Source: a virus. Taken from it: 64,000 bases of DNA. Shown in pieces: positions 37,274 through 56,783 of this stretch. The stretch is from positions 32,001 through 96,000 of the IMG/VR virus record IMGVR_UViG_3300044712_000815; one strand, 5' to 3'. The notes under the pieces were generated by a model. It made no database searches and was not told the DNA's origin. It was given only the letters and a program-made list of their open reading frames with translations. Numbering within the stretch: the first letter of the stretch is position 1; each line of letters opens with the position of its first letter. The position numbers and the translations under genes are program-made.

Positions 37274-39250
37274 ATGATTTTAATAGACAAAATACAAATA
37301 ACTGTAACCAATAAAAATGTTGGTTATTATAATCAATTGGGTTATAATGTAAAATCTGGTGATATTATTGATGTTAATATTAATCATTTGCCAAAAACTT
37401 CCAAATTAATAATTGATGTTTCCTGTGATGAATGTAACAGAAAATATAATATATCATACTATTCATATTTAAGAAATATCAAAAATGAAATATATCACTG
37501 CAAAAAATGTTCTGGGATTCGATCAAAAGAAACAAATTTAAAAAAATATGGAGTTGATCATCCATTAAAATTAGAAGAATTTAAAGAAAAAACGAAAGAA
37601 ACTAATTTAAAAAAATATGGTGTAGAATATTCTATGCAAAATAAAGAAATTAGGGAAAAATCAAAAATCACAATAAATGAAAAGTATGGATCATTAGAAT
37701 ATATGTCAACAGATGATTTTAAAGAAAAATCAAAAATAACATTAAATAAAATATATGGGGTAGATTATCCACTACAGAATAATTCAATAAAAATTAAGGT
37801 TGAAAATACTTGTTTAGACCGATATTTAGCTAAATCACCATTTGAATCATATTTTATTAAGGATAAAATATCTAACACAAAAAAAGAAAGATATAATGAT
37901 GAATTTTATAATAATAGGATAAAATATAAACATACGTGTTTAGAAAAATTTGGATTTGAAAATCCAATGCAAAATGAATCAATAAAACAAAAATTATCTA
38001 ATATCATATTTGAAAAATATGGTGTATATTATCCATCGCAAAATGAATTAATTTATCAGAAAATGTTAAAAAATGGTTTACATATTTTTAAATATAAAGA
38101 TTCAGATATTTTTTATCAAGGAAAATATGAATTGGATTTTTTAAATAAATACTATGATAAAATAGATTTAAAAAGAGGCAAATCTATAAAATATATTTTT
38201 GATAATAAAGAATATACATATTATCCGGATTTTTATTTAGAAGATTTAAATTTGATAATAGAAATAAAATCATCATTTTGGTTTAATAAACACCATATTA
38301 AAAATTTGGAAAAACAAAAAAAATGCAAAGAAAATGGATTTAATTTTATATTTATAATAGATAAAAAATATGAAATATTTGATAAAATGATTGAACATAT
38401 AGTATATAATAAAGAACATTCTTGGCAATATGATTTAAGATTAAAATTATTAAAAGAAGATATAAAAAAAATTAATTTTAATTATGAAAATTTGAAAATA
38501 TCAGATTTTAATTTCGAATTTATAGAAAAAAATGATATTAGAACTAAAGAAATAGTCGAATTTATAAAAAAATATGAATGGCTTGGTAAAATGCCAAATA
38601 GACCCACACATAGGTTTATTGCGACATACAACAATATATTAGCTGGTGTTATTGTAATGTCAACACCAAATTCTTTTTCGATGATGTTGGGTGAAAATAC
38701 ACAAAATATAGAAAAACTCATTAGTAGAGGTGCTTGTGCATCTTGGACACCAAAAAATTTAGCTAGTTCATTATTAATGTGGTCCATTAATTGGATGGTT
38801 AAAAATACCGAATTTAGATTGTTTGAAGCATATGCTGACCCCGAAGCAAAAGAACTTGGCACTATATATCAAGCTTGTAATTTTTATTATGTTGGCGATA
38901 ATTTTGGTTCTGATAAATTATATTTTGATGTAGAAAAAGATAATGGGTGGGTTAACAATAGAAGTTTTAGAAAATTAAATTTTTATAAATCTTTCTTAAA
39001 AAAGAATAATATTGATTGGAATGATAATTGGAACAAAAAAACAACAATACTTTGGAATAATATACCAAGTGGTATTGTAGATATTATGAAAAAATATTCA
39101 TTAGAATGTATGAACAATTGTCTAGTTAGAAAGCCAAAAAATAAACATAAATATGCATATGTTATTGGTAATAGTAAGAAAGAAACTAAGATATTAAGAA
39201 AAAAGTTTGAAACTATAAATAAAATTTATAATTATCCAAAAAATAGATAA
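37274..39250 (+). CDS. Putative homing endonuclease (KYG repeats + PD-(D/E)xK) fused to Mom-like GNAT DNA-modification domain
   Basis: TNLKKYGV repeats; YYPDFYL..IIEIKS; C-terminal LAGVIVM, ISRGAC, NLASSLL, AYADP...GTIYQACNFYYVG. Confidence 0.7.
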   Translation: MILIDKIQITVTNKNVGYYNQLGYNVKSGDIIDVNINHLPKTSKLIIDVSCDECNRKYNISYYSYLRNIKNEIYHCKKCSGIRSKETNLKKYGVDHPLKLEEFKEKTKETNLKKYGVEYSMQNKEIREKSKITINEKYGSLEYMSTDDFKEKSKITLNKIYGVDYPLQNNSIKIKVENTCLDRYLAKSPFESYFIKDKISNTKKERYNDEFYNNRIKYKHTCLEKFGFENPMQNESIKQKLSNIIFEKYGVYYPSQNELIYQKMLKNGLHIFKYKDSDIFYQGKYELDFLNKYYDKIDLKRGKSIKYIFDNKEYTYYPDFYLEDLNLIIEIKSSFWFNKHHIKNLEKQKKCKENGFNFIFIIDKKYEIFDKMIEHIVYNKEHSWQYDLRLKLLKEDIKKINFNYENLKISDFNFEFIEKNDIRTKEIVEFIKKYEWLGKMPNRPTHRFIATYNNILAGVIVMSTPNSFSMMLGENTQNIEKLISRGACASWTPKNLASSLLMWSINWMVKNTEFRLFEAYADPEAKELGTIYQACNFYYVGDNFGSDKLYFDVEKDNGWVNNRSFRKLNFYKSFLKKNNIDWNDNWNKKTTILWNNIPSGIVDIMKKYSLECMNNCLVRKPKNKHKYAYVIGNSKKETKILRKKFETINKIYNYPKNR

Positions 39251-40860: not shown

Positions 40861-41095
40861 TATAGAAATTTTAAATGATCTATCAGATAAAATATTTGAA
40901 GATGCAATAAAAAATGGAATTCTTTCTGATATAGAAAGTGATAAAAATTATGCTGGATATTTTATGTATATGTATAGTATTAATAATATACACTATTTTA
41001 AACATAAAATGACTAGAAAATATGGTTATGATTATGATACAATAATGGAAGCGTGTAATTTGTGGTATGCATCAAGAAAAAAAACAATATTATGA
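40850..41095 (+). CDS. Hypothetical protein
   Basis: Overlapping ORF. Confidence 0.5.
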   Translation: MENNIEILNDLSDKIFEDAIKNGILSDIESDKNYAGYFMYMYSINNIHYFKHKMTRKYGYDYDTIMEACNLWYASRKKTIL

Positions 41096-41898
41096 AAAAT
41101 AAAATTAAAATAATAGATCATATGTTTGCCCATGCGAAATATAGTACGGATTATCAAGAATCTGAATATATTGATTGGGATAGAACACCAATATTACCAA
41201 CTGATGATACGATATTCTATACAGATTATAGTTTAGATCAGGTTAGATCAAATAAAACAACATATGCTTGGTTATTGGAATCACCAGATATAACAACACA
41301 ATCATATAATTGGATTTCTAATAATAACAAAAAATTTACCAAAGTTTTAACACATAGCAAAGAATTATTAGATCGGGGCGAAAATTTTATATTTTGCCCT
41401 ACTGGTGGTTGTTGGATTAAACCCGAAGATCAAAAAATATATGAAAAAACAAAAATAATTTCAATAATTGCATCAGCAAAAAGAATGACCCGTGGTCATT
41501 TGTTAAGACATCAAGCTATTCAACAATTTAAAAATATTGATGTATATGGTAGAGGATATAATCCAATTGATTATAAATTAGATGGATTAAAAGATTATGC
41601 ATTTTCTTTAACTATTGAAAATACAAAAAAAGATTATTATTTCACAGAAAAATTAATTGATTGCTTTATGACAGGAACAGTACCTATATATTGGGGATGT
41701 CCATCAATAGACAAAATATTTCATCCTGATGGTATGATATTTTTTGATAATGTTGATGAACTTGATAATATATTAAACAATTTGTCTTTAGATAAATATA
41801 ATTCAATGAAAGATGCAATTTTATATAATTTTTTTATGGCAAAACAATATAGAATAGCAGAAGATTATATTTATAAAAAAATAATAAATAAAATATGA
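41092..41898 (+). CDS. GT10-like (fucosyltransferase-family) glycosyltransferase
   Basis: YAFSLTIEN...YFTEKLIDCF..GTVPIYWG. Confidence 0.8.
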   Translation: MKNKIKIIDHMFAHAKYSTDYQESEYIDWDRTPILPTDDTIFYTDYSLDQVRSNKTTYAWLLESPDITTQSYNWISNNNKKFTKVLTHSKELLDRGENFIFCPTGGCWIKPEDQKIYEKTKIISIIASAKRMTRGHLLRHQAIQQFKNIDVYGRGYNPIDYKLDGLKDYAFSLTIENTKKDYYFTEKLIDCFMTGTVPIYWGCPSIDKIFHPDGMIFFDNVDELDNILNNLSLDKYNSMKDAILYNFFMAKQYRIAEDYIYKKIINKI

Positions 41899-42206
41899 AA
41901 TTAGGTGAATTTATAGAAAAATTTAGTCACAATAATTTGATTAGACTTGTGTATAAACACAAAGGTGGAAATGAAATTGTATTAGAAACGTGGGATGATG
42001 TTTCAATGGATTGGGAAGTAAATAAAGGGAAAGGTAAAAATAGACATTATATAAATAATGAAGTGCTTGGATTGGCTTCAATTTGTGGGATAGGTCATTA
42101 TCCTGAAGCAATAAATATTATTATTGAAAGATTAGATAATCAACCATTTATTGATGAAATTATTGATGAAAGTAATTATAATTGTACTATGAATAATTAT
42201 GAATGA
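41895..42206 (+). CDS. Hypothetical protein
   Basis: ATGA overlap. Confidence 0.55.
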   Translation: MKLGEFIEKFSHNNLIRLVYKHKGGNEIVLETWDDVSMDWEVNKGKGKNRHYINNEVLGLASICGIGHYPEAINIIIERLDNQPFIDEIIDESNYNCTMNNYE

Positions 42207-42960
42207 TTTTAAAAAAATAATGGACAATTATATTAACAATAGTCCAATATGGACTATGTTAGAAGATAATTTCAATAAATATTATATTGAAGATCAAAAA
42301 ACTATAAATATACCAAAAAAAATACATCAAACTTGGTTGGGTAGTAAAATTCCAGATAAATATACTAGGATTATTGAAACTTGGAAGGAAAAAAATCCAG
42401 ATTGGGAATATAAGTTGTGGACTGATGATGATATTGAAAGTTTCAAATTGGAAAATATTGAAAGTTTTAATAAAATAAATAATCTTGGGGCAAAAACTGA
42501 CATTTTAAGATATGAAATATTATATAGAGAAGGTGGGTTGTATATAGATACGGATTTTGAATGTTTAAAAAGTTTTAACGATTTAATATATTTAGATTTA
42601 TTTTCAGGTACAGGTCATGTTGATGTTCCTGAAGTTTTTAATGGCCTTATTGCGTGTAAACCTGGTCATCAATTGATGCGAAAATTAATTGATGATATAA
42701 AGGTTATTGATACTAATGATTTTAATAAAATAATATCATTAACAGGACCTAAATATTTTTCTAGTAAATTATTCGAATGGATTAAAGATAATCCTACTGA
42801 TAAAATTGTTGTTTTTCCGACTAAATTTTTTTATCCATTTCCAGCTGAACATAGATTTATGATTAGAAATGATGATGAAAATAGTCGTAATATAGTTAAC
42901 CAATTTAATACGGAAAAATCATATTGTACCCATTTATGGTATACTAGTTGGCAAAAATAA
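42199..42960 (+). CDS. GT32 / DXD-motif glycosyltransferase
   Basis: IPKKIHQTW, DILRYEILYREGGLYIDTD, TGP, HLWYTSW. Confidence 0.88.
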   Translation: MNDFKKIMDNYINNSPIWTMLEDNFNKYYIEDQKTINIPKKIHQTWLGSKIPDKYTRIIETWKEKNPDWEYKLWTDDDIESFKLENIESFNKINNLGAKTDILRYEILYREGGLYIDTDFECLKSFNDLIYLDLFSGTGHVDVPEVFNGLIACKPGHQLMRKLIDDIKVIDTNDFNKIISLTGPKYFSSKLFEWIKDNPTDKIVVFPTKFFYPFPAEHRFMIRNDDENSRNIVNQFNTEKSYCTHLWYTSWQK

Positions 42961-42968
42961 TTAAAATT

Positions 42969-43301
42969 ATGAAATATTTTAAAAAATTATTATTAAAATA
43001 TATTGGAAAAATAGAATATATTGTTACAATAACTAATACGGGTGGTGAAATTGAAAAATATTGTTTTTATAAAACAAAAGATCTTGATGTTTTTGTAAAT
43101 GAAATTAATGCTGAAATATATTGGATGGTAGAAAAAATAGAAAAAATTAAAAGATTTGATTTTAAATATAATAAAGAAATAATACATACCCCATTGTGGT
43201 TTCAAAATACTTTTACAGAAAAATATAAATTGGATGATTGTGAATATAGCTTTTTTATGGGCGATGATAGTTTACAAAATATTAAACGTACAAACCGATG
43301 A
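42969..43301 (+). CDS. Hypothetical protein
   Basis: Operon ORF. Confidence 0.5.
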   Translation: MKYFKKLLLKYIGKIEYIVTITNTGGEIEKYCFYKTKDLDVFVNEINAEIYWMVEKIEKIKRFDFKYNKEIIHTPLWFQNTFTEKYKLDDCEYSFFMGDDSLQNIKRTNR

Positions 43302-43528
43302 AAAATGACCAAATGGAAAATGTAAAAGAAAAAATTGAAAGACTTGGGGAAATATGTGGAGCTGCAAGTATGATGAAAATTGGTGAAGAATTAAAAAACG
43401 AACAAGAAATTATAATAAATTACTTAAAGGTAATGAATGTTATTGAAATTGGTATTGATGGTAGGGGATTTTATTTTACTGATGAAAAATATACGGATTT
43501 ATTTTTAGAATATCGTGATAATTTTTAA
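43298..43528 (+). CDS. Hypothetical protein
   Basis: Operon ORF. Confidence 0.5.
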   Translation: MKNDQMENVKEKIERLGEICGAASMMKIGEELKNEQEIIINYLKVMNVIEIGIDGRGFYFTDEKYTDLFLEYRDNF

Positions 43529-43533
43529 AGGAT

Positions 43534-43995
43534 ATGGGTGAAAAAATTATCGACTATATAAAAAATCCAGAATCAATTTTAGATGATAATAATATTGATA
43601 TTGAAATAAGAAAATTGTGTTTTCTTTTTAATAAGTATGGTTTGAGAACACAATTTTCTTGTATTGGTCACGAATTAGATGTCTTAGGTAAGAAAGAAAA
43701 AAATAGAAAATCTCATATTATTTTTGATGATAATATAACAAATGATGATATATCTAAATTGTTAAATAATATACATTTAATTGAAAGAGATAAAATTATA
43801 ATAGCGAAAGATAAATATATTGAATTTCCTGTTGATATTGGTAATTTTGGTTCTTGGATAAGGATTTTAAATAATGAAGCAAAAACAAATCAAACTTGGG
43901 AATTAACATATAATGATAATATTGATTTTCGAAATAAAATTATAAAAAAATTAGAATATTGTTTAACAAAATTGATAGAATTAAAAAATAAATAA
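43534..43995 (+). CDS. Protein with TYW3-like TxxSCxGH motif
   Basis: DIEI...N..GLRTQFSCIGH. Confidence 0.5.
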   Translation: MGEKIIDYIKNPESILDDNNIDIEIRKLCFLFNKYGLRTQFSCIGHELDVLGKKEKNRKSHIIFDDNITNDDISKLLNNIHLIERDKIIIAKDKYIEFPVDIGNFGSWIRILNNEAKTNQTWELTYNDNIDFRNKIIKKLEYCLTKLIELKNK

Positions 43996-43999
43996 AAAT

Positions 44000-44824
44000 A
44001 TGGATTTTATTATAGGTGAAAAATTTATCAATGTGGGAGATTCAATATTTTCAACAAATCGTGTTGAAATTAATAATGAAGATTACAATAAACGTGTTAA
44101 TACGTTTGATACAGAAAAGTTAACTGATATCAATATCGTATATCTTCATACAATGTATAAAAATCAATTTTTTCATAGAATAAAAAATTTAGACAATAAA
44201 TTTGTTGTAGTTACACATAATAGTGACTTGAATATAAACGAAGTTGATAATTTACCAAATAATGTGATAAAATGGTTCGCACAAAATGTTAATTGTGTTG
44301 ATGATAGATTAGAATCTATTCCAATAGGATTAGAAAACAGTATTTGGTATTCATACATTGAAAAACCAAAAAAAATATCTAATAAACTAAATGAAAATAA
44401 AAAAATACAAAATTTAGTATATATGAACCACAATATTGCCACTAATGAAAAAGAACGGATAATTCCATATAGAATATTAAACGATAAATCATATGTGACT
44501 ACTGAATTATGTTCAAATGGTGTAGATTATGAGAACTACATTAATAAAATATATAATCACAAATTTATTATTAGTCCAGAAGGAAATGGTATTGATTGTC
44601 ACAGAACATGGGAAATTTTATATTTAAATTCTATCCCAATTCAAAAAAAGAATATAAATAATCAATATTATACAGATTTACCAATTTGTTTTGTTGATAG
44701 TTGGGAAGATGTAACCGAAGATTTTTTAAATAAAGAATATGATAGAATAATTAATTCAAAATGGAATTTAGATAAATTAAAAATGACATATTGGATTGAT
44801 AAAATTCAGAAATACAAAAAATAA
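44000..44824 (+). CDS. Exostosin/GT47-like glycosyltransferase
   Basis: THNSD, WFAQN, IPIGLEN, KFIISPEGNGIDCHRTWE. Confidence 0.7.
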   Translation: MDFIIGEKFINVGDSIFSTNRVEINNEDYNKRVNTFDTEKLTDINIVYLHTMYKNQFFHRIKNLDNKFVVVTHNSDLNINEVDNLPNNVIKWFAQNVNCVDDRLESIPIGLENSIWYSYIEKPKKISNKLNENKKIQNLVYMNHNIATNEKERIIPYRILNDKSYVTTELCSNGVDYENYINKIYNHKFIISPEGNGIDCHRTWEILYLNSIPIQKKNINNQYYTDLPICFVDSWEDVTEDFLNKEYDRIINSKWNLDKLKMTYWIDKIQKYKK

Positions 44825-44834
44825 TTAAAATATT

Positions 44835-45365
44835 ATGAAAATAGGAGACAAAGTTGTAATTGACAAAGAATATTATGTTCAAAAACACAAAGAAATATAT
44901 CCTGAATGGGAATGTGATGGATTAACAAACGATAAAGAACTACTTGGATATAAGCAATTTATTATAGATGGTAGAGAATTATTAGTTGTAAATATATCAG
45001 CAATGAATTATCGTTTAGATTCTTGGTCACACGATAAATATGTAATATATATTCATTTTTTAAGTGATGATGGTATTAAATTTATGACACAATATGATTT
45101 TATTAAGGATGATAGTAAAGAAATACCAAATATAACCTCAATATCTGATTTGAATATAGAACCTAGAAAAAATACGAATATAGAAAATATCATAAAATTA
45201 TTAAAAGAAAAAAAATCAACAAGAAAATCTACTGAAGATAGGATTATAAATGATATTAGATCAAACAAAGATATATATAAACCTGACCTAGAAGCCATTT
45301 TTGCGTTATCTGTAACAATAACAGCTTTAGAAGAACTATTAATATTAGAAGAACAAAATCACTAA
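44835..45365 (+). CDS. Hypothetical protein
   Basis: Operon ORF. Confidence 0.55.
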   Translation: MKIGDKVVIDKEYYVQKHKEIYPEWECDGLTNDKELLGYKQFIIDGRELLVVNISAMNYRLDSWSHDKYVIYIHFLSDDGIKFMTQYDFIKDDSKEIPNITSISDLNIEPRKNTNIENIIKLLKEKKSTRKSTEDRIINDIRSNKDIYKPDLEAIFALSVTITALEELLILEEQNH

Positions 45366-46010
45366 ATGGAAAAATATATTGAAAAATTATTAGATATAAT
45401 AGACTACAATGATGGTTTTTATATAGAATGTGGTGCTAATGATGGTGTCACACAAAGTTATACTTATGAATTAGAAAAACGAAATTGGAAAGGGATTTTG
45501 ATTGAACCATCAGCAACAGCATATTATAAATGTATTAGTAATAGATCGAAAGAAAATTTATTTTATAATTGTGCATTAGTATCAGATAATAAAACAGAAA
45601 TTATTGGTGATTTTGATGGAAGTTGTATGGCAAGTGTTAATGGTGAAAGATTGGGTAGAAACAATTTGTTTACTGTTAAGTGTCGAACACTTACATCAAT
45701 TTTAGATGAACTTAAAACTGAAATTAATGGTCTTATTGGTTCAGAAGAATTACTAAATAAAATTAATAATATTGATTTATTTAGTTTAGATGTAGAAGGA
45801 TATGAATTAGAAGTATTAAAGGGATTGGATTTTTCTAAATATAGTCCCAAATATTTATTAATTGAAATTTATAGTAAAGATTATGATGAAATATTCAATT
45901 TTTTGAAAAAAAACAACTATGAATATGTTTTAAGTACAACAAACTTTAATAAAATTGATAATCCTTTTTGGGATGGTACACATAATGATTATTTATTCAA
46001 AAAAATATAA
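45366..46010 (+). CDS. FkbM-family methyltransferase
   Basis: IECGANDG, GILIEP, DLFSLDVEGYE. Confidence 0.9.
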   Translation: MEKYIEKLLDIIDYNDGFYIECGANDGVTQSYTYELEKRNWKGILIEPSATAYYKCISNRSKENLFYNCALVSDNKTEIIGDFDGSCMASVNGERLGRNNLFTVKCRTLTSILDELKTEINGLIGSEELLNKINNIDLFSLDVEGYELEVLKGLDFSKYSPKYLLIEIYSKDYDEIFNFLKKNNYEYVLSTTNFNKIDNPFWDGTHNDYLFKKI

Positions 46011-46013
46011 AAT

Positions 46014-46703
46014 ATGCCAAATATATTTATAGTTCATTATAAAAAATTAATAGAAAGAAAAGATTATCTAAAATCAGCTTTACATTTTTTTGTAGAAAGA
46101 AATAAATGTGAATTTGTTGAAAATTTTGATCGAGATTTGATCGAAACATATGATACCATGTATCATAAAAATATTGAACTTTGGAAAGAACGAATATCCG
46201 GAATTTATATAAATGAACCAGAATATAGGGATTTAAAACCTTCTGAAATTTGTAATTCATTATCCCATATTGATGCTATGAAACGTATGTTAAATCAGAA
46301 TTTACCACGTGCGATAATTCTAGAAGATGATGTGATAGTTAATGATGATTTTTTAGAAAAAATATATAATTTAATTCGTATTTTACCTAATGATTATGAT
46401 TTCGCATTTTTTGGAACATCGTATGATATGTCACAATTAGATAATATAACATTTAATGAATCAATACAATATGATCAAAATTTATATAAGAAAAAAATTG
46501 GTATAACTAGATGTGTGGATGCATATATTGTTAGTGAAAAAGGTGCGAAAAAAATAGTTAATGAAATTAGTGAGATTTGTTTACCATTTGATTTTGAATT
46601 AAATTATTTCTTTAAAAAATTAAATATGAACGTTTATTGGTATGATCCAGGTTTTATTTCCCAAGGAAGTCAAACGGGACAATATAAAAGTTCTATACGA
46701 TAA
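46014..46703 (+). CDS. GT25 glycosyltransferase
   Basis: ERK, EICNSLSH, ILEDD, AYIVSEKGAKK, PFD. Confidence 0.8.
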   Translation: MPNIFIVHYKKLIERKDYLKSALHFFVERNKCEFVENFDRDLIETYDTMYHKNIELWKERISGIYINEPEYRDLKPSEICNSLSHIDAMKRMLNQNLPRAIILEDDVIVNDDFLEKIYNLIRILPNDYDFAFFGTSYDMSQLDNITFNESIQYDQNLYKKKIGITRCVDAYIVSEKGAKKIVNEISEICLPFDFELNYFFKKLNMNVYWYDPGFISQGSQTGQYKSSIR

Positions 46704-46717
46704 AAAAATATAAAAAT

Positions 46718-47095
46718 ATGGCAGTTATTGCGGTTGATTTTGATGGGACATGTGTTACGCACGAATATCCTAGAATTGGTAAAGATATTGGTGCTGTGCC
46801 AGTATTAAAAAAATTAATTGATGCTGGACATCAGTTAATATTATTTACTATGCGAAGTGGTAAAGAATTACAAGATGCTGTAGATTGGTTTATTAATAAT
46901 AATATAGTGTTATATGGCATAAACATAAATCCAGAACAATCATCTTGGACAAAAAGTAATAAGGCTTATGCCCATCTTTATATTGATGATGCTGGGATTG
47001 GGTGTCCATTAATTTTTGATGATAATATAGCAAGAAGACAGTTTGTTGATTGGGTGAAAGTTGAAGAAATATTAAAACAAAAAAGGTTATTATGA
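46718..47095 (+). CDS. HAD-superfamily phosphatase (BT0820-like)
   Basis: IAVDFDGT, LFTMR, K..A.LYIDD. Confidence 0.85.
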   Translation: MAVIAVDFDGTCVTHEYPRIGKDIGAVPVLKKLIDAGHQLILFTMRSGKELQDAVDWFINNNIVLYGININPEQSSWTKSNKAYAHLYIDDAGIGCPLIFDDNIARRQFVDWVKVEEILKQKRLL

Positions 47096-47493
47096 AAAAT
47101 AAGTATAGTTTGAAAGAAATTAATTATAGTAGATATAGTACGATAAAAATAAGTACAGATCAACAATTGAAAACGGATAAAGAAGTTAAATATTTAACTG
47201 ATGAACAAATTAAAAATGGTGAACAAGGAATAATTTTTGTACCTTGGATACTAAAAGAACATACGACTGAATCTTTAAAGGATTATAATTCTTTTATGAA
47301 AAAGTATAGAAAACAACATGAAGTATGTCCAAAATGTGGGGCAAAAGAACACATTACAACACTTATGGGTTATCCAATGTATTCGGATAGACGAGAAGAA
47401 TATAAGGATTTAAATTCATGTTTATGTGTGTGTGGTGATGTTCATTCGTGTCACGATAGAATATCTATTAAAGAATTTAAAAATAAAATATAA
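47092..47493 (+). CDS. Zn-ribbon protein with short capsid-like motif
   Basis: CPKCG...CLCVCG..H..HDR; GIIFVPWIL resembles capsid GLVFVPYLM. Confidence 0.55.
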   Translation: MKNKYSLKEINYSRYSTIKISTDQQLKTDKEVKYLTDEQIKNGEQGIIFVPWILKEHTTESLKDYNSFMKKYRKQHEVCPKCGAKEHITTLMGYPMYSDRREEYKDLNSCLCVCGDVHSCHDRISIKEFKNKI

Positions 47494-47495
47494 TT

Positions 47496-47711
47496 ATGGA
47501 TGCAAATGAAATTTTAAACGAATATTTAAATCTTGATATAAAAGAAAAAATTAGATTTAAAGTATTAATGAATGATTATGATAAATTAGAAAAACTTGAA
47601 AAAAGAATAGAAATTGCTAAAACACTTACTAATATAGTAAATGAAAACGGTGAATCATATTTAAGTTCAGATTGGGTTAAAACCAATATATTAAAAATAA
47701 AAAATGGATAA
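47496..47711 (+). CDS. Miniature paralogue of the portal C-terminal (crown) region
   Basis: LEKLEKRIEIAKTLT-NIVNENGESYLSSDWVKTNILKI vs portal LNNLSKRAEIASTLSSNLVDADGKPYLSIEFLIRKIMKF (17/39 identical). Confidence 0.7.
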   Translation: MDANEILNEYLNLDIKEKIRFKVLMNDYDKLEKLEKRIEIAKTLTNIVNENGESYLSSDWVKTNILKIKNG

Positions 47712-47865
47712 GTTTAAAATTACATATTGGAAACACAATAAACTAAACCCAATGTCGAAATGTTTTGAAGTAATTGATGCAATAAATAAAAATAATGCAT
47801 TTGATATTTTTATGAATAAATATTCAGGTTCATATTATTATATTATAAAAATAGATTTGATATGA
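47704..47865 (+). CDS. 53-aa hypothetical protein (not in ORF track)
   Basis: MDKFKITYWKH...IIKIDLI; fills the gap and overlaps both neighbours. Confidence 0.45.
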   Translation: MDKFKITYWKHNKLNPMSKCFEVIDAINKNNAFDIFMNKYSGSYYYIIKIDLI

Positions 47866-48725
47866 TATATTTTTACAACAATTTTCATAATGGTGATATT
47901 CATTATTCAAGAACATTTGTTAAGGATATTATGAATAAGTTGGGTAATAATGATTATTGTTATTTGCATAATTGTGATCCAAATATATTAAGAGATATTT
48001 CAAATTTAAAGCACAATAATTCATTTATTAGTTTTGATAATTGGAATTTAATAAGTGATTACCCAATAAAGCATAATTCGCAAATATTAAGAACTGAATA
48101 TGATATATTTATAAACACTTGGGTTGGTCAAAAAGATATGTCTTATATACATCTAGATAAAGATATATCATGTTCACTATATGCACATTATAATTTATAT
48201 AAAGATATTTATGATGAATTATCTATACCAATAGAAGATATAGAATATTATATTCCTGAAATAAACTTTAATAACATTAATAAATCTAGTATTGATAATT
48301 TTATATCTAGTAATAATTTTGAAAAAATCATTTTAATTGCTAATAATATTCCACGTACTGTTAGAATGGATTTAGATTTGAATATATTAGCAGATAAATT
48401 ATCTATTGACTATCCCAATATTTTAATAGCATTAACAAATGAAACAAATTTAATAAAAAATAATATTTTATATCTTGGAAATTTAATACCAGAACCAAAT
48501 TTAAATGAAATAAGTTATTTTTCTAAATTTTGTGATATTATCGTTGGTTTTCCATCGGGTCCATATATTTTTACTATGATAAAAGATAATTTATTTGATA
48601 TAAATAAAACTTTTATTACAATTTCGGATAATATATATGATTCATATTATTTTGAAAGCAAATCAAAAATGTTGCATTTACTAGATCATAATATGGTTAA
48701 TTTATATGAATTAATAAAATTTTGA
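47862..48725 (+). CDS. Putative GT-B fold glycosyltransferase
   Basis: HNGDIHYSR; CDIIVGFPSGP, GT9-like C-terminal motif. Confidence 0.5.
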   Translation: MIYFYNNFHNGDIHYSRTFVKDIMNKLGNNDYCYLHNCDPNILRDISNLKHNNSFISFDNWNLISDYPIKHNSQILRTEYDIFINTWVGQKDMSYIHLDKDISCSLYAHYNLYKDIYDELSIPIEDIEYYIPEINFNNINKSSIDNFISSNNFEKIILIANNIPRTVRMDLDLNILADKLSIDYPNILIALTNETNLIKNNILYLGNLIPEPNLNEISYFSKFCDIIVGFPSGPYIFTMIKDNLFDINKTFITISDNIYDSYYFESKSKMLHLLDHNMVNLYELIKF

Positions 48726-48730
48726 TAAAA

Positions 48731-48913
48731 ATGGAAACTAAAAAAGAAATCGAAAAAGGATTTGTGAATGTTCATATTGACATTACAACAAAACAAGTTT
48801 ATGTATCAAATCATCCATATCCAACTATAGAAGAAGCAGAAATGGGAATTTTTTGTGGATTTGGGATAGAAAAAGTTGGTTGTTTTGAGATAGAATATAC
48901 GAAATACGAATAA
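48731..48913 (+). CDS. Hypothetical protein
   Basis: Operon ORF. Confidence 0.45.
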   Translation: METKKEIEKGFVNVHIDITTKQVYVSNHPYPTIEEAEMGIFCGFGIEKVGCFEIEYTKYE

Positions 48914-48914
48914 T

Positions 48915-49139
48915 ATGAAAAATAAAAATATGTACAAAGCATTTAAAATTACAAAAAAGTATAGACTGACTTTTAATAAGTTCAAAAAGTCAGCTAAAAA
49001 CGATAAGTCTATTTGTGTTTATTCGACTGGAATACGAAATTGGGTAGCAGATGATAGCTTTAACTATTCAATCGTACTTGGAACATTTAGAATAATATTT
49101 TCAATTGAAAGAATTCAACGTGGATGTTGTAATGGTTAA
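48915..49139 (+). CDS. Hypothetical protein
   Basis: Operon ORF. Confidence 0.45.
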   Translation: MKNKNMYKAFKITKKYRLTFNKFKKSAKNDKSICVYSTGIRNWVADDSFNYSIVLGTFRIIFSIERIQRGCCNG

Positions 49140-49160
49140 CAAAAATAAAAATAGTAAATA

Positions 49161-49349
49161 ATGAATGATTTGAAAAATAATCAATTATATGGCTACATTA
49201 TGATATTTGATAAACCAGATTTGAACGGAATTGCAATTTCAAAAAAAGCGATTAATTTAGATGACTTTGAACAAATGAAAAAACGTGGTGATATTATAGA
49301 TTATGAAATTGATGAAAAAGGAATAAAAATTACAAAAAATTACATTTGA
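49161..49349 (+). CDS. Small protein weakly resembling the prohead protease N-terminus
   Basis: LYGYIMIFDKPDLNG vs LSGTFTEFNIKNRND. Confidence 0.45.
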   Translation: MNDLKNNQLYGYIMIFDKPDLNGIAISKKAINLDDFEQMKKRGDIIDYEIDEKGIKITKNYI

Positions 49350-50107
49350 ATTATATGAAAGAATATTATTCAACTAGAAACTTTAATGAAGAAACATTAA
49401 ATAAAATTTTTTCAACATTAAAAAAGTGGACAGAATTCATCCAAAATACAACAAATTTTTCATTTATAAAATTTGGTGATGGTGAATTTTACTGTATGAT
49501 GGGTGAAGAAGGTGAAAATTGTGATCATCATCCATATTCAAAAGAATTAGCTGTTAAGTTGTATGATGCTTGGTACTTTTTTAATACATTAGAATACATA
49601 TATATTGCAGAATGGGCAGGACATAAACCGGATATGAATTGTGCAACAATATCTGAAAGATTTCAATTAGATTTGATTTCTAAAACAGATATTAAAGTTA
49701 ATTTTGTTAATTATGAAATACTATTACAAAATACGTTATGTGAAGACAAATTTAATTTTTTAAAATCTATAAAAGATTCAAATAGAAAAAAAATATTTGT
49801 TGGCCCAAATAGATTACAGGGGGTTAATGATTTTTTGAATGTAGATACATTTATAAACATACCATTAATTAACACATTTGCAAAATATGATGAAATATTA
49901 CCAACAATTTTAAATGAAATTGAAGATAATAGTATATTTTTATTTTCGTGTGGCTTACCATCAAAATCTTTTATTCATAAAATATTAGAAAAAAATAATA
50001 ATGTGACTTGTTTAGATTTTGGTAGTGGATTTGATTCAATGTTTGTTGGACACACTAGAGAAGGTCAAATTGATGGAAATTATGTAAAAAATTATTACAA
50101 TCTATAA
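49346..50107 (+). CDS. GT-D fold (DUF1792-like) glycosyltransferase
   Basis: SFIKFGDGE; FSCGLPSK; LDFGSGFD. Confidence 0.7.
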   Translation: MNYMKEYYSTRNFNEETLNKIFSTLKKWTEFIQNTTNFSFIKFGDGEFYCMMGEEGENCDHHPYSKELAVKLYDAWYFFNTLEYIYIAEWAGHKPDMNCATISERFQLDLISKTDIKVNFVNYEILLQNTLCEDKFNFLKSIKDSNRKKIFVGPNRLQGVNDFLNVDTFINIPLINTFAKYDEILPTILNEIEDNSIFLFSCGLPSKSFIHKILEKNNNVTCLDFGSGFDSMFVGHTREGQIDGNYVKNYYNL

Positions 50108-50286
50108 TGGTACAAGTTACAACAGGTGGTGGTTATACACCCAAAAAATTAACAGATAAAGAAAAAATAAAAGAACTTATTGAACTTTGTTCTATGGTTG
50201 AATCAGAAAATGTAAAATATAGAAAAGATATAGAAAATCTAAAAAATGAAATAAATTTATTAAAAAATAGATATGATAGTTTATGA
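50107..50286 (+). CDS. 59-aa coiled-coil protein (not in ORF track)
   Basis: MVQVTTGGGYTPKK...NRYDSL; TAATG and ATGA overlaps. Confidence 0.5.
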   Translation: MVQVTTGGGYTPKKLTDKEKIKELIELCSMVESENVKYRKDIENLKNEINLLKNRYDSL

Positions 50287-51098
50287 ATGAAGTAATTTTT
50301 TATGAAATAGAAAAAGAAAAATGGTGTGAAGTAAGATATTTAGATGCCGTTATAAGTTATTTAAATAAAAAAATAACAAACTATTCAATAATAGTAACAC
50401 CCAATCAACACACTTTACCTAATACTAAATTTGCGAAAATAATAGTAATATTAACAGGTGATGAATTGGGATTTTTTAGTTCACAAAATTATAATAATCC
50501 GAATATTGTTAAAATATTTAGATTTTTTAATAGAATAGGTAGATATGATGAAAAATTTATATATCCTATTCCACCTGGATATAATTGGACTATGCATAAT
50601 GATTATAGTAAGCAAATGATCAAAATGTATCCTGAGAAAAAATTATCAGAAAGAAAATATGATATTTCATTTCTTGGACAACCATTACCTTGTAGAATTG
50701 AATTATTTAATATTTTAAATCAATTATCAAGCAAATATAATGTATTAAGTAGTGTAAGTCCATCTTTTAGAACGGGTGTTCATATTGATGATTATTATAA
50801 AATAATGGGTGATACAAAGATCGCATTAGCACCAGATGGAACATCAGTAGATACGTTTAGATATGTTGAAGCATTTGGTAGTGGCTGTGTAGTAATTACT
50901 ACAAAAAAAGATGATATTTGGTATTATAGAAATTCACCCACAGTTTTTATTAATTCTTGGTCTGAATTAAATGATAAGCTTATCGAAAATATTTTATCTA
51001 TGGATTTAGAAGAATTATATGATAAAAATTTAAAATATTATAAAGAAATATTATCAGAGGAAGCTGTTGCTAATTATATATATATAAATTTGATATAA
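50283..51098 (+). CDS. Exostosin/GT47-like glycosyltransferase
   Basis: GDE, RKYDISFLGQ, TKIALAPDG..VDTFRYVEAFGSGC. Confidence 0.7.
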   Translation: MNEVIFYEIEKEKWCEVRYLDAVISYLNKKITNYSIIVTPNQHTLPNTKFAKIIVILTGDELGFFSSQNYNNPNIVKIFRFFNRIGRYDEKFIYPIPPGYNWTMHNDYSKQMIKMYPEKKLSERKYDISFLGQPLPCRIELFNILNQLSSKYNVLSSVSPSFRTGVHIDDYYKIMGDTKIALAPDGTSVDTFRYVEAFGSGCVVITTKKDDIWYYRNSPTVFINSWSELNDKLIENILSMDLEELYDKNLKYYKEILSEEAVANYIYINLI

Positions 51099-51103
51099 AA
51101 TAA

Positions 51104-51475
51104 ATGAAAAATGTAAAAGAATATTTAGATAAAAATCTTTTTGTGGTAGGTGAAACATCATGTACATTAAAAAGTAATGGTCATTATTGTGTTTGTGGAT
51201 CGTGGAAATATCCAAAAAAATGGAATGGTCATTCTATTTTTTATAAATCATCAGATGAAGATAAAAAAAATTCTAAAGATGAACCAGATCATATTTCTAT
51301 TTGTATTAATAATGAAGTCGTAATAGTTAGTAATATGTGTGTTAATGGTATATGGAGTAAATATCATTATCTACAAATGTATGAACATATACCAAGAAAT
51401 GAAAGATGCACAAGTGATGAAATAATCAAATATATAGATGAATTTTTTCAATTAATAAAACAAAATGAAAAATAA
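51104..51475 (+). CDS. Hypothetical protein
   Basis: Last ORF of the operon. Confidence 0.5.
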   Translation: MKNVKEYLDKNLFVVGETSCTLKSNGHYCVCGSWKYPKKWNGHSIFYKSSDEDKKNSKDEPDHISICINNEVVIVSNMCVNGIWSKYHYLQMYEHIPRNERCTSDEIIKYIDEFFQLIKQNEK

Positions 51476-51476
51476 A

Positions 51477-51845
51477 TTACTTATTAAATAATCGTTTAGA
51501 TATTTTTTTCCATCTTGATTCTTCGTGTGGTGTTAATGAACCACGATTTTGCAGTTTAATAAACTTATCGTGTTCTTGTTTTAATTCTTCCATTGACATA
51601 TCATCAATATGTTTTTCTTTATAATTTTCATTGACAAATGTATCAAAATTACAAATTAATGATTCTTTCTTTTTTCTAGATTTCTTTTTTTCTCTATCAT
51701 ATATGGATGTGCAAATAGCATAAGCTTGTTTTGACTTTTTCTTTTTTGACTTTGTTGTCAAAGTTTCGGGTTCATTATGATATATATGTGATATACACCT
51801 TGGAATGAATTTATTTTTTGTTTCTTTTTTTCTTGGTTCAGGCAT
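51477..51845 (-). CDS. Basic hypothetical protein
   Basis: MPEPRKKE..KFIPRC...QAYAIC; internal FDTFVNE. Confidence 0.6.
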   Translation of the reverse strand: MPEPRKKETKNKFIPRCISHIYHNEPETLTTKSKKKKSKQAYAICTSIYDREKKKSRKKKESLICNFDTFVNENYKEKHIDDMSMEELKQEHDKFIKLQNRGSLTPHEESRWKKISKRLFNK

Positions 51846-51854
51846 TTTAAAAGA

Positions 51855-52256
51855 TTATTTTAATGTACTAAGTTTAGATAAACCATAATATATGTCAATT
51901 ATCCTTACTCGAAGACATCCCATTGATTGAGAATTATATACGGCAGATGTTGAAGGTTTTTGGAGTAAACAAGTAATCCAAATTTCTTGACCACGTTTAA
52001 CTTGTTTAAGACTCAAATCGGTATTAAGAACTGGACCACCAGCAATTTCATCTAGTTTTTTTATTTCATTTTCGTCCGTGATCATACCAGTTATTTGAAT
52101 AATTTCTACAGGTTCTTTGATCTTTTTATATTCACCATTGTCAAGTTTAGATATTGCAATAATATCATCGGATAAAGGTTGAAATTCTTTATCTTTTTCA
52201 AAGTTTTTATTTTTTGTATCTTTGAAATCGTTAAATTTTGTTGTTATATCACTCAT
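51855..52256 (-). CDS. Putative internal head protein
   Basis: ITTKFNDF N-terminus. Confidence 0.55.
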   Translation of the reverse strand: MSDITTKFNDFKDTKNKNFEKDKEFQPLSDDIIAISKLDNGEYKKIKEPVEIIQITGMITDENEIKKLDEIAGGPVLNTDLSLKQVKRGQEIWITCLLQKPSTSAVYNSQSMGCLRVRIIDIYYGLSKLSTLK

Positions 52257-52264
52257 TATTAATA

Positions 52265-52498
52265 TTATTTTCCAAGTGATATTAAAATTGAATCTAATTT
52301 TTCATGTATTAAAAGCATTTTAGCAATATAATCAAAAGTATTATTAGGATTATTTGATTGTTCAATAGCGATATCATCTATCAATATTTTAATATCATCT
52401 ATTTTTTTTAAATTATCTTTCATATAACCACTGAATTTATTTGCAATTTCAGTATTTTCTTTTATCAAGTCTTCATCTAGTGTTGTAAATTTTTTCAT
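52265..52498 (-). CDS. Putative internal head protein
   Basis: MKKFTTLDEDLIKE. Confidence 0.5.
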   Translation of the reverse strand: MKKFTTLDEDLIKENTEIANKFSGYMKDNLKKIDDIKILIDDIAIEQSNNPNNTFDYIAKMLLIHEKLDSILISLGK

Positions 52499-52773
52499 AT
52501 TTCTGTGAATTTTTTTATGTCTGTTGGATCGAATAAAACTTCTGAATCTTCTAGATCAATTTCTTTTATTTCAGGATTATCAACTTTAACAAATTTATAA
52601 GATGTTAATTCATCCAATATTACATCTTCAGTAACTTCATCATCTGTAAATTTATTAACAATATTATGAATATCATGTAATGTTAAGACATAAACACCTT
52701 CTTCTGAATCTTCAATTTCTATTGTCATTGATTCATCTAATTTATAGTTTGTAAAATTTATAATTTCTTCCAT
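52495..52773 (-). CDS. Acidic putative internal head protein
   Basis: IINFTNYKLDES; ends IKKFTEI. Confidence 0.5.
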   Translation of the reverse strand: MEEIINFTNYKLDESMTIEIEDSEEGVYVLTLHDIHNIVNKFTDDEVTEDVILDELTSYKFVKVDNPEIKEIDLEDSEVLFDPTDIKKFTEI

Positions 52774-52774
52774 T

Positions 52775-53218
52775 TTAGTTTCTTATTTTATATTCTTTTA
52801 ATAGATATTCTTTATATTTATCAATTAGTTTATCAATCAAAAATTCATTATTAAATTTTTTATTATCAATATCATAAACTAAGTTATCATTAATTTTAAT
52901 ATTGATATTATTTTCATATTCATTTTTATATACAGATAATTTAGCATATATTTTATCATTGTTTGATAAATCAATTGTAATATATGTTCTATATATTAAA
53001 TTAATATTTTTAAAATCTTTTTTATCAAAATAACCACCAATTTTCTTTATTCTTATTGGTTTTGGATTATTTTTTCTTTTATATGTTATTATTGATAATT
53101 CATCTTTTATTTTGTTTATTAATTTTGTATTTTCATCTTCAATATCAAATTCTATATCTGAAATATCTAATTTTTCTAATATTTCTTTAAATCTTGTTAT
53201 CATACTATTGTTTTTCAT
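52775..53218 (-). CDS. Putative internal head protein
   Basis: MITRFKEILE. Confidence 0.5.
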   Translation of the reverse strand: MKNNSMITRFKEILEKLDISDIEFDIEDENTKLINKIKDELSIITYKRKNNPKPIRIKKIGGYFDKKDFKNINLIYRTYITIDLSNNDKIYAKLSVYKNEYENNINIKINDNLVYDIDNKKFNNEFLIDKLIDKYKEYLLKEYKIRN

Positions 53219-53224
53219 TTAATT

Positions 53225-53614
53225 TTATGAATTTGGTAAAACAAAATCATTTGTTACTTGATTTGGATTAGAAGCTGGTGAATAATCTGTACTCATCGGT
53301 TGTTCAGATGTCCATTGTGGTTTGAGTGGGGTATTTATCATATCCGAATTATTATCATCGTGATCTTTTGGATTGATGATCATGTCTGCCCTTGCTTCGA
53401 TTGGTTCTTGGTTTGGAAATGGGTTTCCTTCAACATTAAACCAAAACTTATAACCATTTGTGCCATTATTTTGTATTTTAACTGGAACAACTTCTCTTTT
53501 ATCTGTGCCTGGTATTTTGTATAATATATACACAATTTCACCATCTTTAAATCCGTTTATTTGTTGTTGTTCATATATAAATTCTTCGAATATTTTAAAT
53601 CTTGTAATTATCAT
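53225..53614 (-). CDS. Putative internal head protein
   Basis: MIITRFKIFEEF. Confidence 0.55.
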   Translation of the reverse strand: MIITRFKIFEEFIYEQQQINGFKDGEIVYILYKIPGTDKREVVPVKIQNNGTNGYKFWFNVEGNPFPNQEPIEARADMIINPKDHDDNNSDMINTPLKPQWTSEQPMSTDYSPASNPNQVTNDFVLPNS

Positions 53615-53622
53615 AATATTAA

Positions 53623-53922
53623 TTATTTTTTTAGGTATTGTTTTAATTTCATTAAATTATCATATTCATCATTTTCAAATTCGTGTTCAACATCATATGT
53701 TCCTTCCAATTTAGCTGATATAACATCATAAAATATATTGAATACATATTCTGTTAAATCAATACCATAATGTGTAATACTACCAAAAGCACCAATTAAT
53801 GTTGAAAAATCATTCAACACATATGATATTTTATGTTTAGGAATATCAAGTTGATTTTCATAAAAATTTATTATTTCTTTTTCTGTCATATTATTTTCAA
53901 ACAATTTAAAATTTGTTATCAT
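53623..53922 (-). CDS. Putative internal head protein
   Basis: MITNFKLFEN. Confidence 0.55.
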   Translation of the reverse strand: MITNFKLFENNMTEKEIINFYENQLDIPKHKISYVLNDFSTLIGAFGSITHYGIDLTEYVFNIFYDVISAKLEGTYDVEHEFENDEYDNLMKLKQYLKK

Positions 53923-53924
53923 AA

Positions 53925-54272
53925 TTAAAAATCATTTTTTATTTCTTCTGTTTGTGCTGTTATTTGAACCATATTACCATCAGCCCAATCATAAATATCA
54001 TCCCAAATAGCCATACTACTTTCAACATTATCTTTCTTTTCAGATAATTTTGTAATTAATTCTTGCAATTTGTTCCAAGAATCATTTGATGTTTGTTTTA
54101 TTATTAAATTCTTTTGATTATTCAAAAAACTAATATATTTAGCATTAAATGAAATTAAATCATTTACGTTTTCAAATATTGATTCATTCCAAATTTTAGA
54201 AATATCTAATTTTAATTTCCAATCATCTTCCTTTTTTTCAAATAATTTATATTTAGTAATCATATTAAACAT
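53925..54272 (-). CDS. Putative internal head protein
   Basis: MITKYKLFE; C-terminal IYDWAD. Confidence 0.55.
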   Translation of the reverse strand: MFNMITKYKLFEKKEDDWKLKLDISKIWNESIFENVNDLISFNAKYISFLNNQKNLIIKQTSNDSWNKLQELITKLSEKKDNVESSMAIWDDIYDWADGNMVQITAQTEEIKNDF

Positions 54273-54368
54273 ATATATAAAAAATATTAAATGAAAATAT
54301 TAATTAATATATAATGTATGGTTTTTAACTTTTAAAAATTAATATATACAAAAAATAACAAATTTATC

Positions 54369-54848
54369 GTGCCAAATATAATTAGAATTAGAGATTTAAT
54401 AAATGAAACAGATTTAAATGGGGTTATTATACCAATTGATAAAACTGGTTATACTTATAATGCACAACAAATTGGTATTCTAGATTTAAAAGATTTTATT
54501 TTATCTGGATTTACTGGTGGAACATCTGGTGGTGGTGGTACTAGTGGAACTTCTGGTGTTGATGGATTGGATGGTGAAGATGGAACTACACCATGTATAT
54601 CAGTTAATTCGAATATTATAACAATTGTTATGTTAACGACGACAACAACGACAACAACACTAGCACCAACGACGACTACGACAACGACATATATTGGACC
54701 AGCAACGACGACTACGACAACGACATATATTGGACCAGCGACAACGACAACAACAACAACTGTTGCTATAACAACGACGACAACAACTCAGTATCCGTAT
54801 GGATTTTCAGATAATTTTGAACCAATTGGATTAAATAACTTATTATAA
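54369..54848 (+). CDS. Thr-rich mucin-like / GTSG-repeat virion protein
   Basis: GTSGTSGVDG segment; poly-Thr tracts; ends FEPIGLNNLL. Confidence 0.7.
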   Translation: MPNIIRIRDLINETDLNGVIIPIDKTGYTYNAQQIGILDLKDFILSGFTGGTSGGGGTSGTSGVDGLDGEDGTTPCISVNSNIITIVMLTTTTTTTTLAPTTTTTTTYIGPATTTTTTTYIGPATTTTTTTVAITTTTTTQYPYGFSDNFEPIGLNNLL

Positions 54849-54863
54849 AAATAGAAAAATATT

Positions 54864-55259
54864 ATGGCAGTAAAAATTACAATTACAAATGCGGGTGGAA
54901 ATATAAGCGATTTTTTAGATATTTATACAAATGAAACGGGATCGTTTCAATTATTACCTGAATTAGCAAATATTCCGAAATCTAGCTTATTGGTAGGATA
55001 TACTTTTACACCACCTGTTGGAACAACAGGTTACCGTGTTATAGATCAATTTTGTTATTCTGTACTTGAACTTTATTGTGCAACGACTACTACAACGACA
55101 ACAACTATTGCACCTGCTACTACAACGACAACAACTATTGCACCTGCTACTACAACGACAACAACTATTGCACCTGCTACTACAACGACAACATCAACTT
55201 ATCCATATTATCCGTTGAATGAAAGTTTTGAACCAATTGGATTAAATAACTTATTATAA
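54864..55259 (+). CDS. Thr-rich mucin-like virion protein
   Basis: 30-bp repeats encoding TTTTTTIAPA; ends FEPIGLNNLL; terminator at ~55262-55285. Confidence 0.7.
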   Translation: MAVKITITNAGGNISDFLDIYTNETGSFQLLPELANIPKSSLLVGYTFTPPVGTTGYRVIDQFCYSVLELYCATTTTTTTTIAPATTTTTTIAPATTTTTTIAPATTTTTSTYPYYPLNESFEPIGLNNLL

Positions 55260-55377
55260 CAAAAGCCCATTTTTAAGTGGGCTTTATTATTTATAATATA
55301 TAAATTTTATCAACAAATAAAATAAAAAAGAATATATTATACATAATGTATATTATGTTAAAAAATAATTAAAATTT

Positions 55378-56013
55378 ATGTTAAATCCAAAAATTAGTGT
55401 AATAATGGCATCATTTTTATTACCATATCCAAATTCAGCAACCAATCGAGATAAAAAATTTGTTCGTGCAGTAAATAGTTTTAAAAAACAATCTTATTCA
55501 AATAAAGAATTAATTATTGTTTCTGATGGTTGTCCATTAACAGTTGAATTGTATAATAAATTTTTCATCAATGATTCAAATATTAAATTGATAAAAATAC
55601 CCAAACAAGAATTATATTCTGGTGGTATGAGAAATGCTGCACTTGAAATAGCTGATGGAGATATTATTAGCTATTTAGATACAGATGATGTTCTTGGTGC
55701 AAATCATTTACAGTTAATTGTTGATGAATTTGATTTGGATAAATATGATTTTGTATATTATGATGATTTGTTGGTTCTCGATAGCACATTTAAGAAATTT
55801 TATCATAGAATAGTTGAACCTCGTTGGGCTAGTATCGGAACAAGTTCAATAAGTCATAAAAATATGAAAGATATGAAGAAATTGTGGTCAACTGGCTATG
55901 GTCACGACTGGTTAACTATGTTTAAATTGGTGAGTATGGGTCTGAAATACAAAAAATTGAATAAAATTTCTGAATATTTGGTTTGTCATTATGGAAATGG
56001 TGGGGATTTTTGA
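55378..56013 (+). CDS. GT2 glycosyltransferase
   Basis: ISVIMAS, ELIIVSDG, RNAALEIADGDIISYLDTDD, GHDW. Confidence 0.88.
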   Translation: MLNPKISVIMASFLLPYPNSATNRDKKFVRAVNSFKKQSYSNKELIIVSDGCPLTVELYNKFFINDSNIKLIKIPKQELYSGGMRNAALEIADGDIISYLDTDDVLGANHLQLIVDEFDLDKYDFVYYDDLLVLDSTFKKFYHRIVEPRWASIGTSSISHKNMKDMKKLWSTGYGHDWLTMFKLVSMGLKYKKLNKISEYLVCHYGNGGDF

Positions 56014-56234
56014 TTCATTTTTTTAAATAATTTATTAATTTTCGAAACAGGTGAAAATCATTATATATTAGATTGTGATTATGTTTTTAATGATAAGTTA
56101 AAGAATATAAATTTTTTATTGAATAAAATAAATCATAATTTAAAAAATAGTGAAGAAATAATAAATGAACTTAAGATATTAAGACTACGAGAAGAACGAA
56201 AACTAAAACTAAAAAAGATAAAAGAGATATGTTA
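55991..56234 (+). pseudogene. Small gene frameshifted in a T7 tract (56018-56024)
   Basis: MEMVGIFDSF joins LNNLLIFETGEN...REERKLKLKKIKEIC only with a frame change. Confidence 0.35.
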
Positions 56235-56780: not shown

Positions 56781-56783
56781 TAT

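Follow-up and report, generated by a model that had tools for sequence, protein, structure and literature searches.

In T4-type phages, the portal nucleates the scaffolding core and its crown lies inside the head (PMC9958956, PMC4493910). The crown of the T4 portal gp20 comprises residues 451-524, which form the helices alpha10-alpha12 (PMC4493910); portal crowns contact the DNA of full heads and shift as the pressure of packaging acts on them (PMC9958956, PMC12929629, PMC12886913). Portal crowns are poorly understood, and the roles proposed for them are headful sensing, DNA anchoring and facing the scaffolding core. The small T4 proteins gp67 and gp68 play a role in the prohead core (PMC9958956). 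In a distinct context, the SaPI1 protein CpmB, which is small and helical, competes with the scaffold of phage 80alpha for a site on the capsid protein (PMC5644958). Portals are also sensed by Avs4-type receptors, a point that the first-pass annotation of the locus described here had taken as established and that is borne out by recent work (bioRxiv 10.64898/2026.01.04.697583). A literature search yielded no description of either free-standing portal-crown proteins or portal-fragment decoys.

The portal, its phage and the mini-crown gene

The stretch of DNA analysed here, called the window (64,000 nucleotides), covers bases 32001-96000 of a 159-kb viral contig. The CheckV completeness of this contig is 22%, which implies a genome of several hundred kb. 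The window contains a T4-type portal gene of 585 aa (30485-32242, + strand) that is matched by PF07230 Portal_T4 (E 1e-62) and phrog_213 and that finds the T4 gp20 structures at a phmmer E of 1e-26. This portal shares 60% identity with its counterpart in the uncultured 735-kb phages LR756501/LR756503, and 33% with those of Lak megaphages. It ends in a repetitive Gly/Gln-rich tail of about 75 residues that is also rich in Ala (residues ~511-585; 32015-32242, +) and carries GGAQ and GGEMPGGAQM repeats. A similar C-terminal tail with different repeats is found in the portal of a related IMG/VR viral contig, L020.

The portal gene is followed by a gene of 170 aa (P0033; 32259-32771, +) that stands in place of the T4 core genes 67/68, by a protease-led gene encoding a protease-scaffold protein of 782 aa (32886-35234), and then by the gp23-type capsid gene. 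Between 30.5 and 64 kb, the large genes all lie on a single strand, the head genes and the small gene under study included. Directly 3' of the capsid gene, a 658-aa fusion (37274-39250, +) joins a homing-endonuclease-like N-terminus (DUF7487; phrog_12131) to a Mom-like DNA-modification domain. Further downstream, a 183-aa ORF (56229-56780, +) has in common with residues 541-561 of the capsid protein a 21-residue stretch, DDNxxxxGxKxxVxQPGxVxV (pairwise E 8e-5), and this pair is absent at E < 1e-3 from an all-against-all search of the contig. On the other strand, upstream of the portal, lies a gene (27335-29614, -) whose 759-aa product is CotH-kinase-like and carries a type IX secretion C-terminal sorting domain, which suggests a Bacteroidota host.

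The ORF of interest, termed here the mini-crown or mini, encodes 71 aa (47496-47711, +; ATG at 47496, stop at 47709-47711) and is a free-standing paralogue of portal residues ~432-498. The first-pass annotation had described it as a small copy of the portal crown region located 15 kb from the portal within a glycosylation operon. Each element of this description stood: the ORF is present with significant homology, the end of the portal gene lies 15.25 kb upstream, and genes for GT-DXD, GT10, GT25, GT-D, GT2, two FkbM methyltransferases and RXYLT1-like proteins surround the mini. These form a glycosyltransferase/methyltransferase island (41062-57554, +) that is co-oriented with the head module. 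Within it, the mini is one of a series of closely spaced genes, all on one strand, for glycosyltransferases, FkbM methyltransferases and small proteins. The upstream ORF of 133 aa (47092-47493, +) encodes a Zn-ribbon protein and stops 2 nt before the mini start, while the start of a downstream 53-aa ORF (47704-47865, +) overlaps the mini stop, an arrangement of translational coupling. No terminator-like site was found near the mini between 43000 and 51500, putative promoters around it were no commoner than in shuffled sequences, and neither Rfam families nor opposite-strand ORFs were found at the locus. The Zn-ribbon ORF belongs to an unnamed family of 18 members with the pattern CPxCG...CxCxxCG..H..H. 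A capsid-protein piece was considered in this ORF, as GEQGxIFVPW aligns to capsid residues 555-567 in many members, and it was rejected because the alignment is never significant (pairwise E 0.1 for the ORF of the window, 0.002 for the best family member, profile E 2.9).

The likeness of the mini to the portal was recovered by several methods. By BLASTP, mini residues 18-70 match portal residues 443-498 (31811-31978, +), which span the wing end and the crown helices alpha10-alpha11, with 21 of 56 residues identical (E 5e-7); with one gap of four residues, an alignment of the whole mini places residues 1-67 on portal 432-495. The 17 identical residues out of 39 and the motifs KRxEIAxTL and GxxYLS reported at first pass are exact. 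The Smith-Waterman score of the pair is 84, against 35 +/- 5 in 2000 shuffles (maximum 61; Gumbel p 7e-6), and the portal is the best match of the mini by this method among the 501 frames of the contig. Six-frame searches from the mini to the portal and back are reciprocal (E ~1e-5), and the pair comes out at E 3.6e-4 in an all-against-all BLAST of 590 ORFs. A profile built from the small homologues only retrieves the portal at E 1e-12, and hhalign aligns the mini family with the portals over 53 columns (97.4% probability, E 9.2e-12). In parallel, PF07230 was matched independently by 5 of 23 relatives of the mini (best E 8.4e-8), and phrog_213 by two relatives. The first-pass annotation had named an insignificant profile alignment as grounds for giving up its proposal, and these profile results speak clearly the other way. 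From these comparisons, the mini ORF is homologous to a segment of the portal crown. Sequence searches of the PDB with the mini protein and with the profile gave chance-level matches only. A match of the mini to DUF515 (PF04415; E 9.5e-6) was set aside: its 24.7 bits are below the gathering score of 29, it recurs in only 2 of 23 relatives, and it is read as a compositional match to a K/E-rich helix.

The mini was placed on T4 gp20 through a phmmer alignment and the published domain limits (PMC4493910). Its residues 18-70 correspond to gp20 ~445-495, that is to alpha10 and alpha11 without alpha12, and the mini as a whole corresponds to the last wing strand followed by alpha10-alpha11 of the crown. 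It is not a full portal in the sense of PF07230, which would have clip, stem, wing and crown in ~450-600 aa at the gathering score, since it is 71 aa long and has no PF07230 match of its own; homology to the crown segment of PF07230 is what hhalign and the PF07230 and phrog_213 matches of the relatives give. The AF2 model of the mini has a pLDDT of 92.6, with helices at residues 3-11, 15-45 and 58-64 and a hairpin at 46-56. Foldseek of this model against the PDB found nothing at E <= 0.001; the T4 portal (6uzc_O) ranked 20th (TMq 0.52, rmsd 2.4 A over 48 columns, E 9.9), and a VIA comparison with the same chain gave a Z of 2.3, which is not significant, such scores being uninformative for a helical protein of 71 aa. 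The ESM Atlas offered no usable feature match for the mini, of which its model is poor.

Age, selection and distribution of the family

At the DNA level, the mini and the portal segment are 57% identical, with 38% identity at third positions, about what composition predicts, and a longest exact run of 7 nt. Third positions at the compositional level and the lack of long exact runs indicate that the copy is old. This agrees with the first-pass view of a diverged gene rather than a recent duplication, as synonymous sites are saturated, and a recent gene conversion between mini and portal was rejected on the same three measures.

An exhaustive search for the mini family among 1.8 billion representatives yielded 30 matches at E <= 1e-3, two of them spurious, namely P0004 and P0006, long repetitive surface proteins that sum weak repeat matches and were rejected as homologues. 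The family amounts to ~27 diverged clusters, mostly of intact proteins of 58-84 aa, together with some fragments and longer fused forms. Its members are characterized by an N-terminal motif, ELFxxYxxLxxxEKIxF, and a C-terminal one, LExRxxIA...ENGxPYxSxDWIxKNILK, and the mini of the window belongs among the free-standing forms by both length and motifs. No Pfam or PHROG model covers the family, all members being unnamed metagenome proteins; it is an undescribed family from giant uncultured phages with T4-type heads.

Mean pairwise identity in the family is 34%, and at least 90% of 23 homologues retain R37 and W60. Such retention of an R and a W of the core at this overall identity is not the pattern of neutral drift. 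Neutral evolution of the ORF, which the first-pass annotation had also named as grounds for dropping its proposal, does not fit with a conserved family of intact small proteins. Moreover, the positions conserved in the minis are largely those of portal crowns: R40, I43, A44, L47, G55, P57, Y58, W63, I68 and K70 (profile numbering). These data bear on the idea that the mini is a non-functional relic of a partial portal duplication that stayed open by chance. A small ORF in an AT-rich genome could arise in this way, and a dN/dS omega of 0.47, measured on 38 codons of a single close DNA pair with 4 synonymous and 8 non-synonymous changes and too small to test, is compatible with relaxed selection. 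On the contrary, the ~27 diverged clusters are mostly similar in length and intact with their motifs kept, the frame has been maintained despite synonymous saturation relative to the portal, and two in-frame deletions in a relative (L021, see below) both preserve the core. A relic is therefore hardly credible.

The portal crowns of the phage of the window and of LR756501 are 67% identical and their minis 29%; by this comparison, the mini evolves much faster than the portal crown. A tree was built from a 47-column core with 52 distinct rows (29 free minis, 15 portals and 8 modules from the gene after the portal). In it, the crowns of the portals come together in a single clade (support 96/97), free minis are far more diverse, and the mini of the window groups with P0003 and L021, away from its own portal.

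The presence of free minis among related phages is patchy. LR756501 has one mini of 95 aa, with a dUTPase-like ORF ~1.3 kb downstream. LR756500.1 carries two tandem mini-crown genes at ~150.5-150.9 kb (L013:1298-1722, -), one of 74 aa and a diverged one of 71 aa, with a thymidylate-synthase-like ORF ~0.65 kb upstream of them and the portal of that phage 78 kb away. In the complete genomes of three related giant phages, LR756502, LR756504 and LR745206, no free mini was found and the only crown was that of the portal itself. In the four cases with known context, the free-standing gene never adjoins head genes.

In the reciprocal comparison of the window with LR756501 (L005, L006), the minis agree with their own portal crown at 17/44 and 17/45 positions and with that of the other phage at 13/44 and 13/45. 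Where the two portals disagree, the mini follows its own portal 10 to 2 (5 to 1 in each direction; one-sided p ~0.02). This bias was not repeated in LR756500, and the single reciprocal pair gives a weak hint that the mini may co-vary with its cognate crown. Two minis that are each slightly closer to their own portal are what would be expected of a weapon between phages, in which the fragment would disrupt, in related phages infecting the same cell, the assembly of the portal ring or the core while sparing its own portal, and small mimics can indeed redirect capsid assembly, as in the case of CpmB (PMC5644958). Nevertheless, likeness to the phage's own portal predicts self-poisoning and the own-portal signal is tiny, making this use of the mini quite improbable.

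The portable core and its proposed place in head assembly

The part of the mini that recurs elsewhere is its core, residues 31-68 (47586-47699, +; LExRxxIAxxL...ENGxPYxSxDWIxKNILK). The new point is that this helix-hairpin-helix of ~38 residues is, as judged from the sequences that contain it, portable, as it occurs alone, in the gene after the portal and in fusions. The two relatives that document this, the metagenome sequence L021 and the viral contig L020, were found by single-protein scans; the same scans with P0015 and P0023 gave nothing useful.

The portal of L020 is 86% identical to that of the window, and the gene right after it contains a mini-type module at residues 64-98 that is 57% identical to the mini of the window (E 1e-12). 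This gene is the orthologue of 32259-32771 in the window, with which it has in common the first ~55 residues and a DDDIDDF tail. The T4 core genes 67 and 68 are flanked by those for the portal and the protease. This place is held here by 32259-32771, and the mini itself lies 15 kb downstream of it. The post-portal family counts 32 members with a conserved N-terminus, the DDDIDDF tail and a cassette-like variable middle, in which a mini-type crown module is found in at least 9 of the 32 and unrelated inserts in the others; further relatives on contigs of 56 and 61 kb have the crown module in this gene too. In the 47-column tree, the post-portal modules nest among the free minis, apart from the adjacent portal. 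The window's own version, P0033, has no crown module; its residues 3-100 resemble portal residues 230-312, a stem/clip helix (BLASTP E 2e-9; all-against-all E 5e-7). With this clip-helix piece in place of the crown module, the phage of the window has two different portal-derived small genes.

Other carriers of the core were found. L021 is syntenic with the window, with a GT25 gene followed by a 125-aa gene, and in it two in-frame deletions have fused part of the Zn-ribbon ORF to mini residues 31-68, the core being 82% identical. The fusion is present in L021 only, that is in 1 of 18 homologues of the Zn-ribbon ORF. P0023 and P0024 join the mini core to other N-terminal parts. P0015, a 256-aa protein from a 10.5-kb contig of an ENA metagenome, combines a mini-crown (residues 1-76) with a paralogue of portal residues 86-267, the rest of the portal being missing.

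Such varied contexts would suit a homology that is historical only, the helix-hairpin-helix now acting as a general oligomerisation or nucleic-acid-binding module with no relation to the portal, for example in the service of the glycosylation operon or of the Zn-ribbon neighbour. The tight coupling of the mini to glycosyltransferase and Zn-ribbon genes, the in-frame fusion in L021 and the contact of the crown with DNA in full heads are consistent with it. This explanation is unlikely, given that most of the positions kept in the minis are also kept in portal crowns, that one Zn-ribbon homologue in 18 is fused to the module, and that the net charge of the mini, read from its sequence, is about neutral and does not suggest DNA binding.

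The same piece of 38 residues is found in a likely head-assembly gene of relatives, and for this reason the mini probably imitates a contact surface of the portal. The reading that is preferred, with a probability of roughly 40%, is that the mini is a crown mimic that would engage the partners of the crown during head assembly, acting as either a small accessory or a competitor. The preference comes from the crown-conserved residues of the minis taken together with the presence of the module in a gene at the position of the core genes. The module would expose the same surface as the portal crown and could bind the partners of the crown inside the assembling prohead, candidates being adjacent crown helices in the ring of portal subunits or the portal-nucleated scaffolding core. 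The mini might then act as a small head-assembly accessory associated with the portal or the core, or modulate the contact by competition. Among the functions put forward at first pass, assembly control is favoured, the module in the gene between portal and protease of relatives being the sole functional pointer, and the proposals of a decoy, a dominant-negative fragment and an exclusion factor were left unsupported. What counts against a part in head assembly is the absence of head genes beside the free minis, their fast evolution, their patchy presence and the tandem duplicate of LR756500.

These last features fit counter-defence equally well, which is why a decoy is kept among the explanations. 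As an immune decoy or inhibitor, the crown mimic would bind a portal sensor (Avs4, Avs11 or SpbK-like) without activating it, or block the sensor, and so protect the phage. Portal sensing by Avs families is established (bioRxiv 10.64898/2026.01.04.697583), fast evolution and patchy presence are those of an arms-race gene, a tandem duplicate exists in LR756500, the mini lies outside the head module among accessory genes, and a second portal piece is found in another small gene, P0033. Yet the interfaces by which Avs sensors are described to envelop the core fold are extended (bioRxiv 10.64898/2026.01.04.697583) and a crown hairpin of 38-70 aa covers little of them, no defence or anti-defence gene was identified beside the mini, and the module is also found within a gene of the head module. 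A role as decoy thus appears rather doubtful.

Both kinds of use could be combined in a more general one, which is put forward tentatively: the portable crown module may be a general-purpose handle that docks proteins on the portal and the core for incorporation into the head, or that baits portal-sensing immunity. Possible carriers of such a handle would be the free mini, the core-like protein encoded after the portal, the Zn-ribbon protein and the paralogue of the portal N-terminus. Taken with the clip-like piece of P0033, it would amount, with similar reserve, to a systematic use, as independent genes, of selected pieces of the portal that the phage itself encodes.

Relation to described systems

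A conserved, portable and free-standing copy of two crown helices offers a way to learn what the crown binds, since the small protein can be produced by itself to serve as bait. Should the module prove to be a docking tag, it would reveal a route by which giant phages bring proteins to the portal; should it prove to be a decoy, no earlier counter-defence would be known that is made of a portal fragment. In this phage group, the gene after the portal also stands out by a cassette-like middle where portal-derived pieces occur.

Defences triggered by portals, such as Avs4 and Avs11, or SpbK with the SPbeta portal, make the portal an immune trigger that a phage has reason to mask. Reportedly, the phage protein Nip, which inhibits SpbK, is no portal fragment and targets the defence protein.

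T4 gp67 and gp68, together with the internal proteins that bear a capsid-targeting sequence, are small, non-enzymatic and fast-evolving and assemble on the core that the portal nucleates. A module related to the mini is found in a gene at the position of genes 67/68, while the mini gene itself is 15 kb from the head module. In the Pfam and PHROG searches, the mini reached no family and showed no similarity to gp67 or gp68.

Among proven systems, CpmB comes closest in its logic and is a precedent for assembly control by mimicry (PMC5644958). In the terms of such a mimic, a motif common to the mini and the portal crown is found by BLASTP, by hhalign and at the conserved positions. CpmB comes from a satellite that is a parasite of the phage, and its action on the capsid protein has been demonstrated by cryo-EM and genetics, whereas the mini is a phage's copy of its own portal.

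The closest relative is the T4-type portal crown itself (gp20 451-524; PF07230; PDB 3JA7, 6UZC). The mini is homologous to its alpha10, loop and alpha11 and to the preceding strand; the residues KR-EIA-L, G-PY-S, W/F-I and I-K are conserved in both, and the start of alpha12 (TDEEI) is present in some members of the mini family. The mini differs from the portal in being a separate protein of 71 aa without clip, stem, wing, alpha12 and C-terminal tail, in evolving far faster and in lying outside the portal clade of the tree. It is a domain paralogue of the portal, and one small enough for direct tests.
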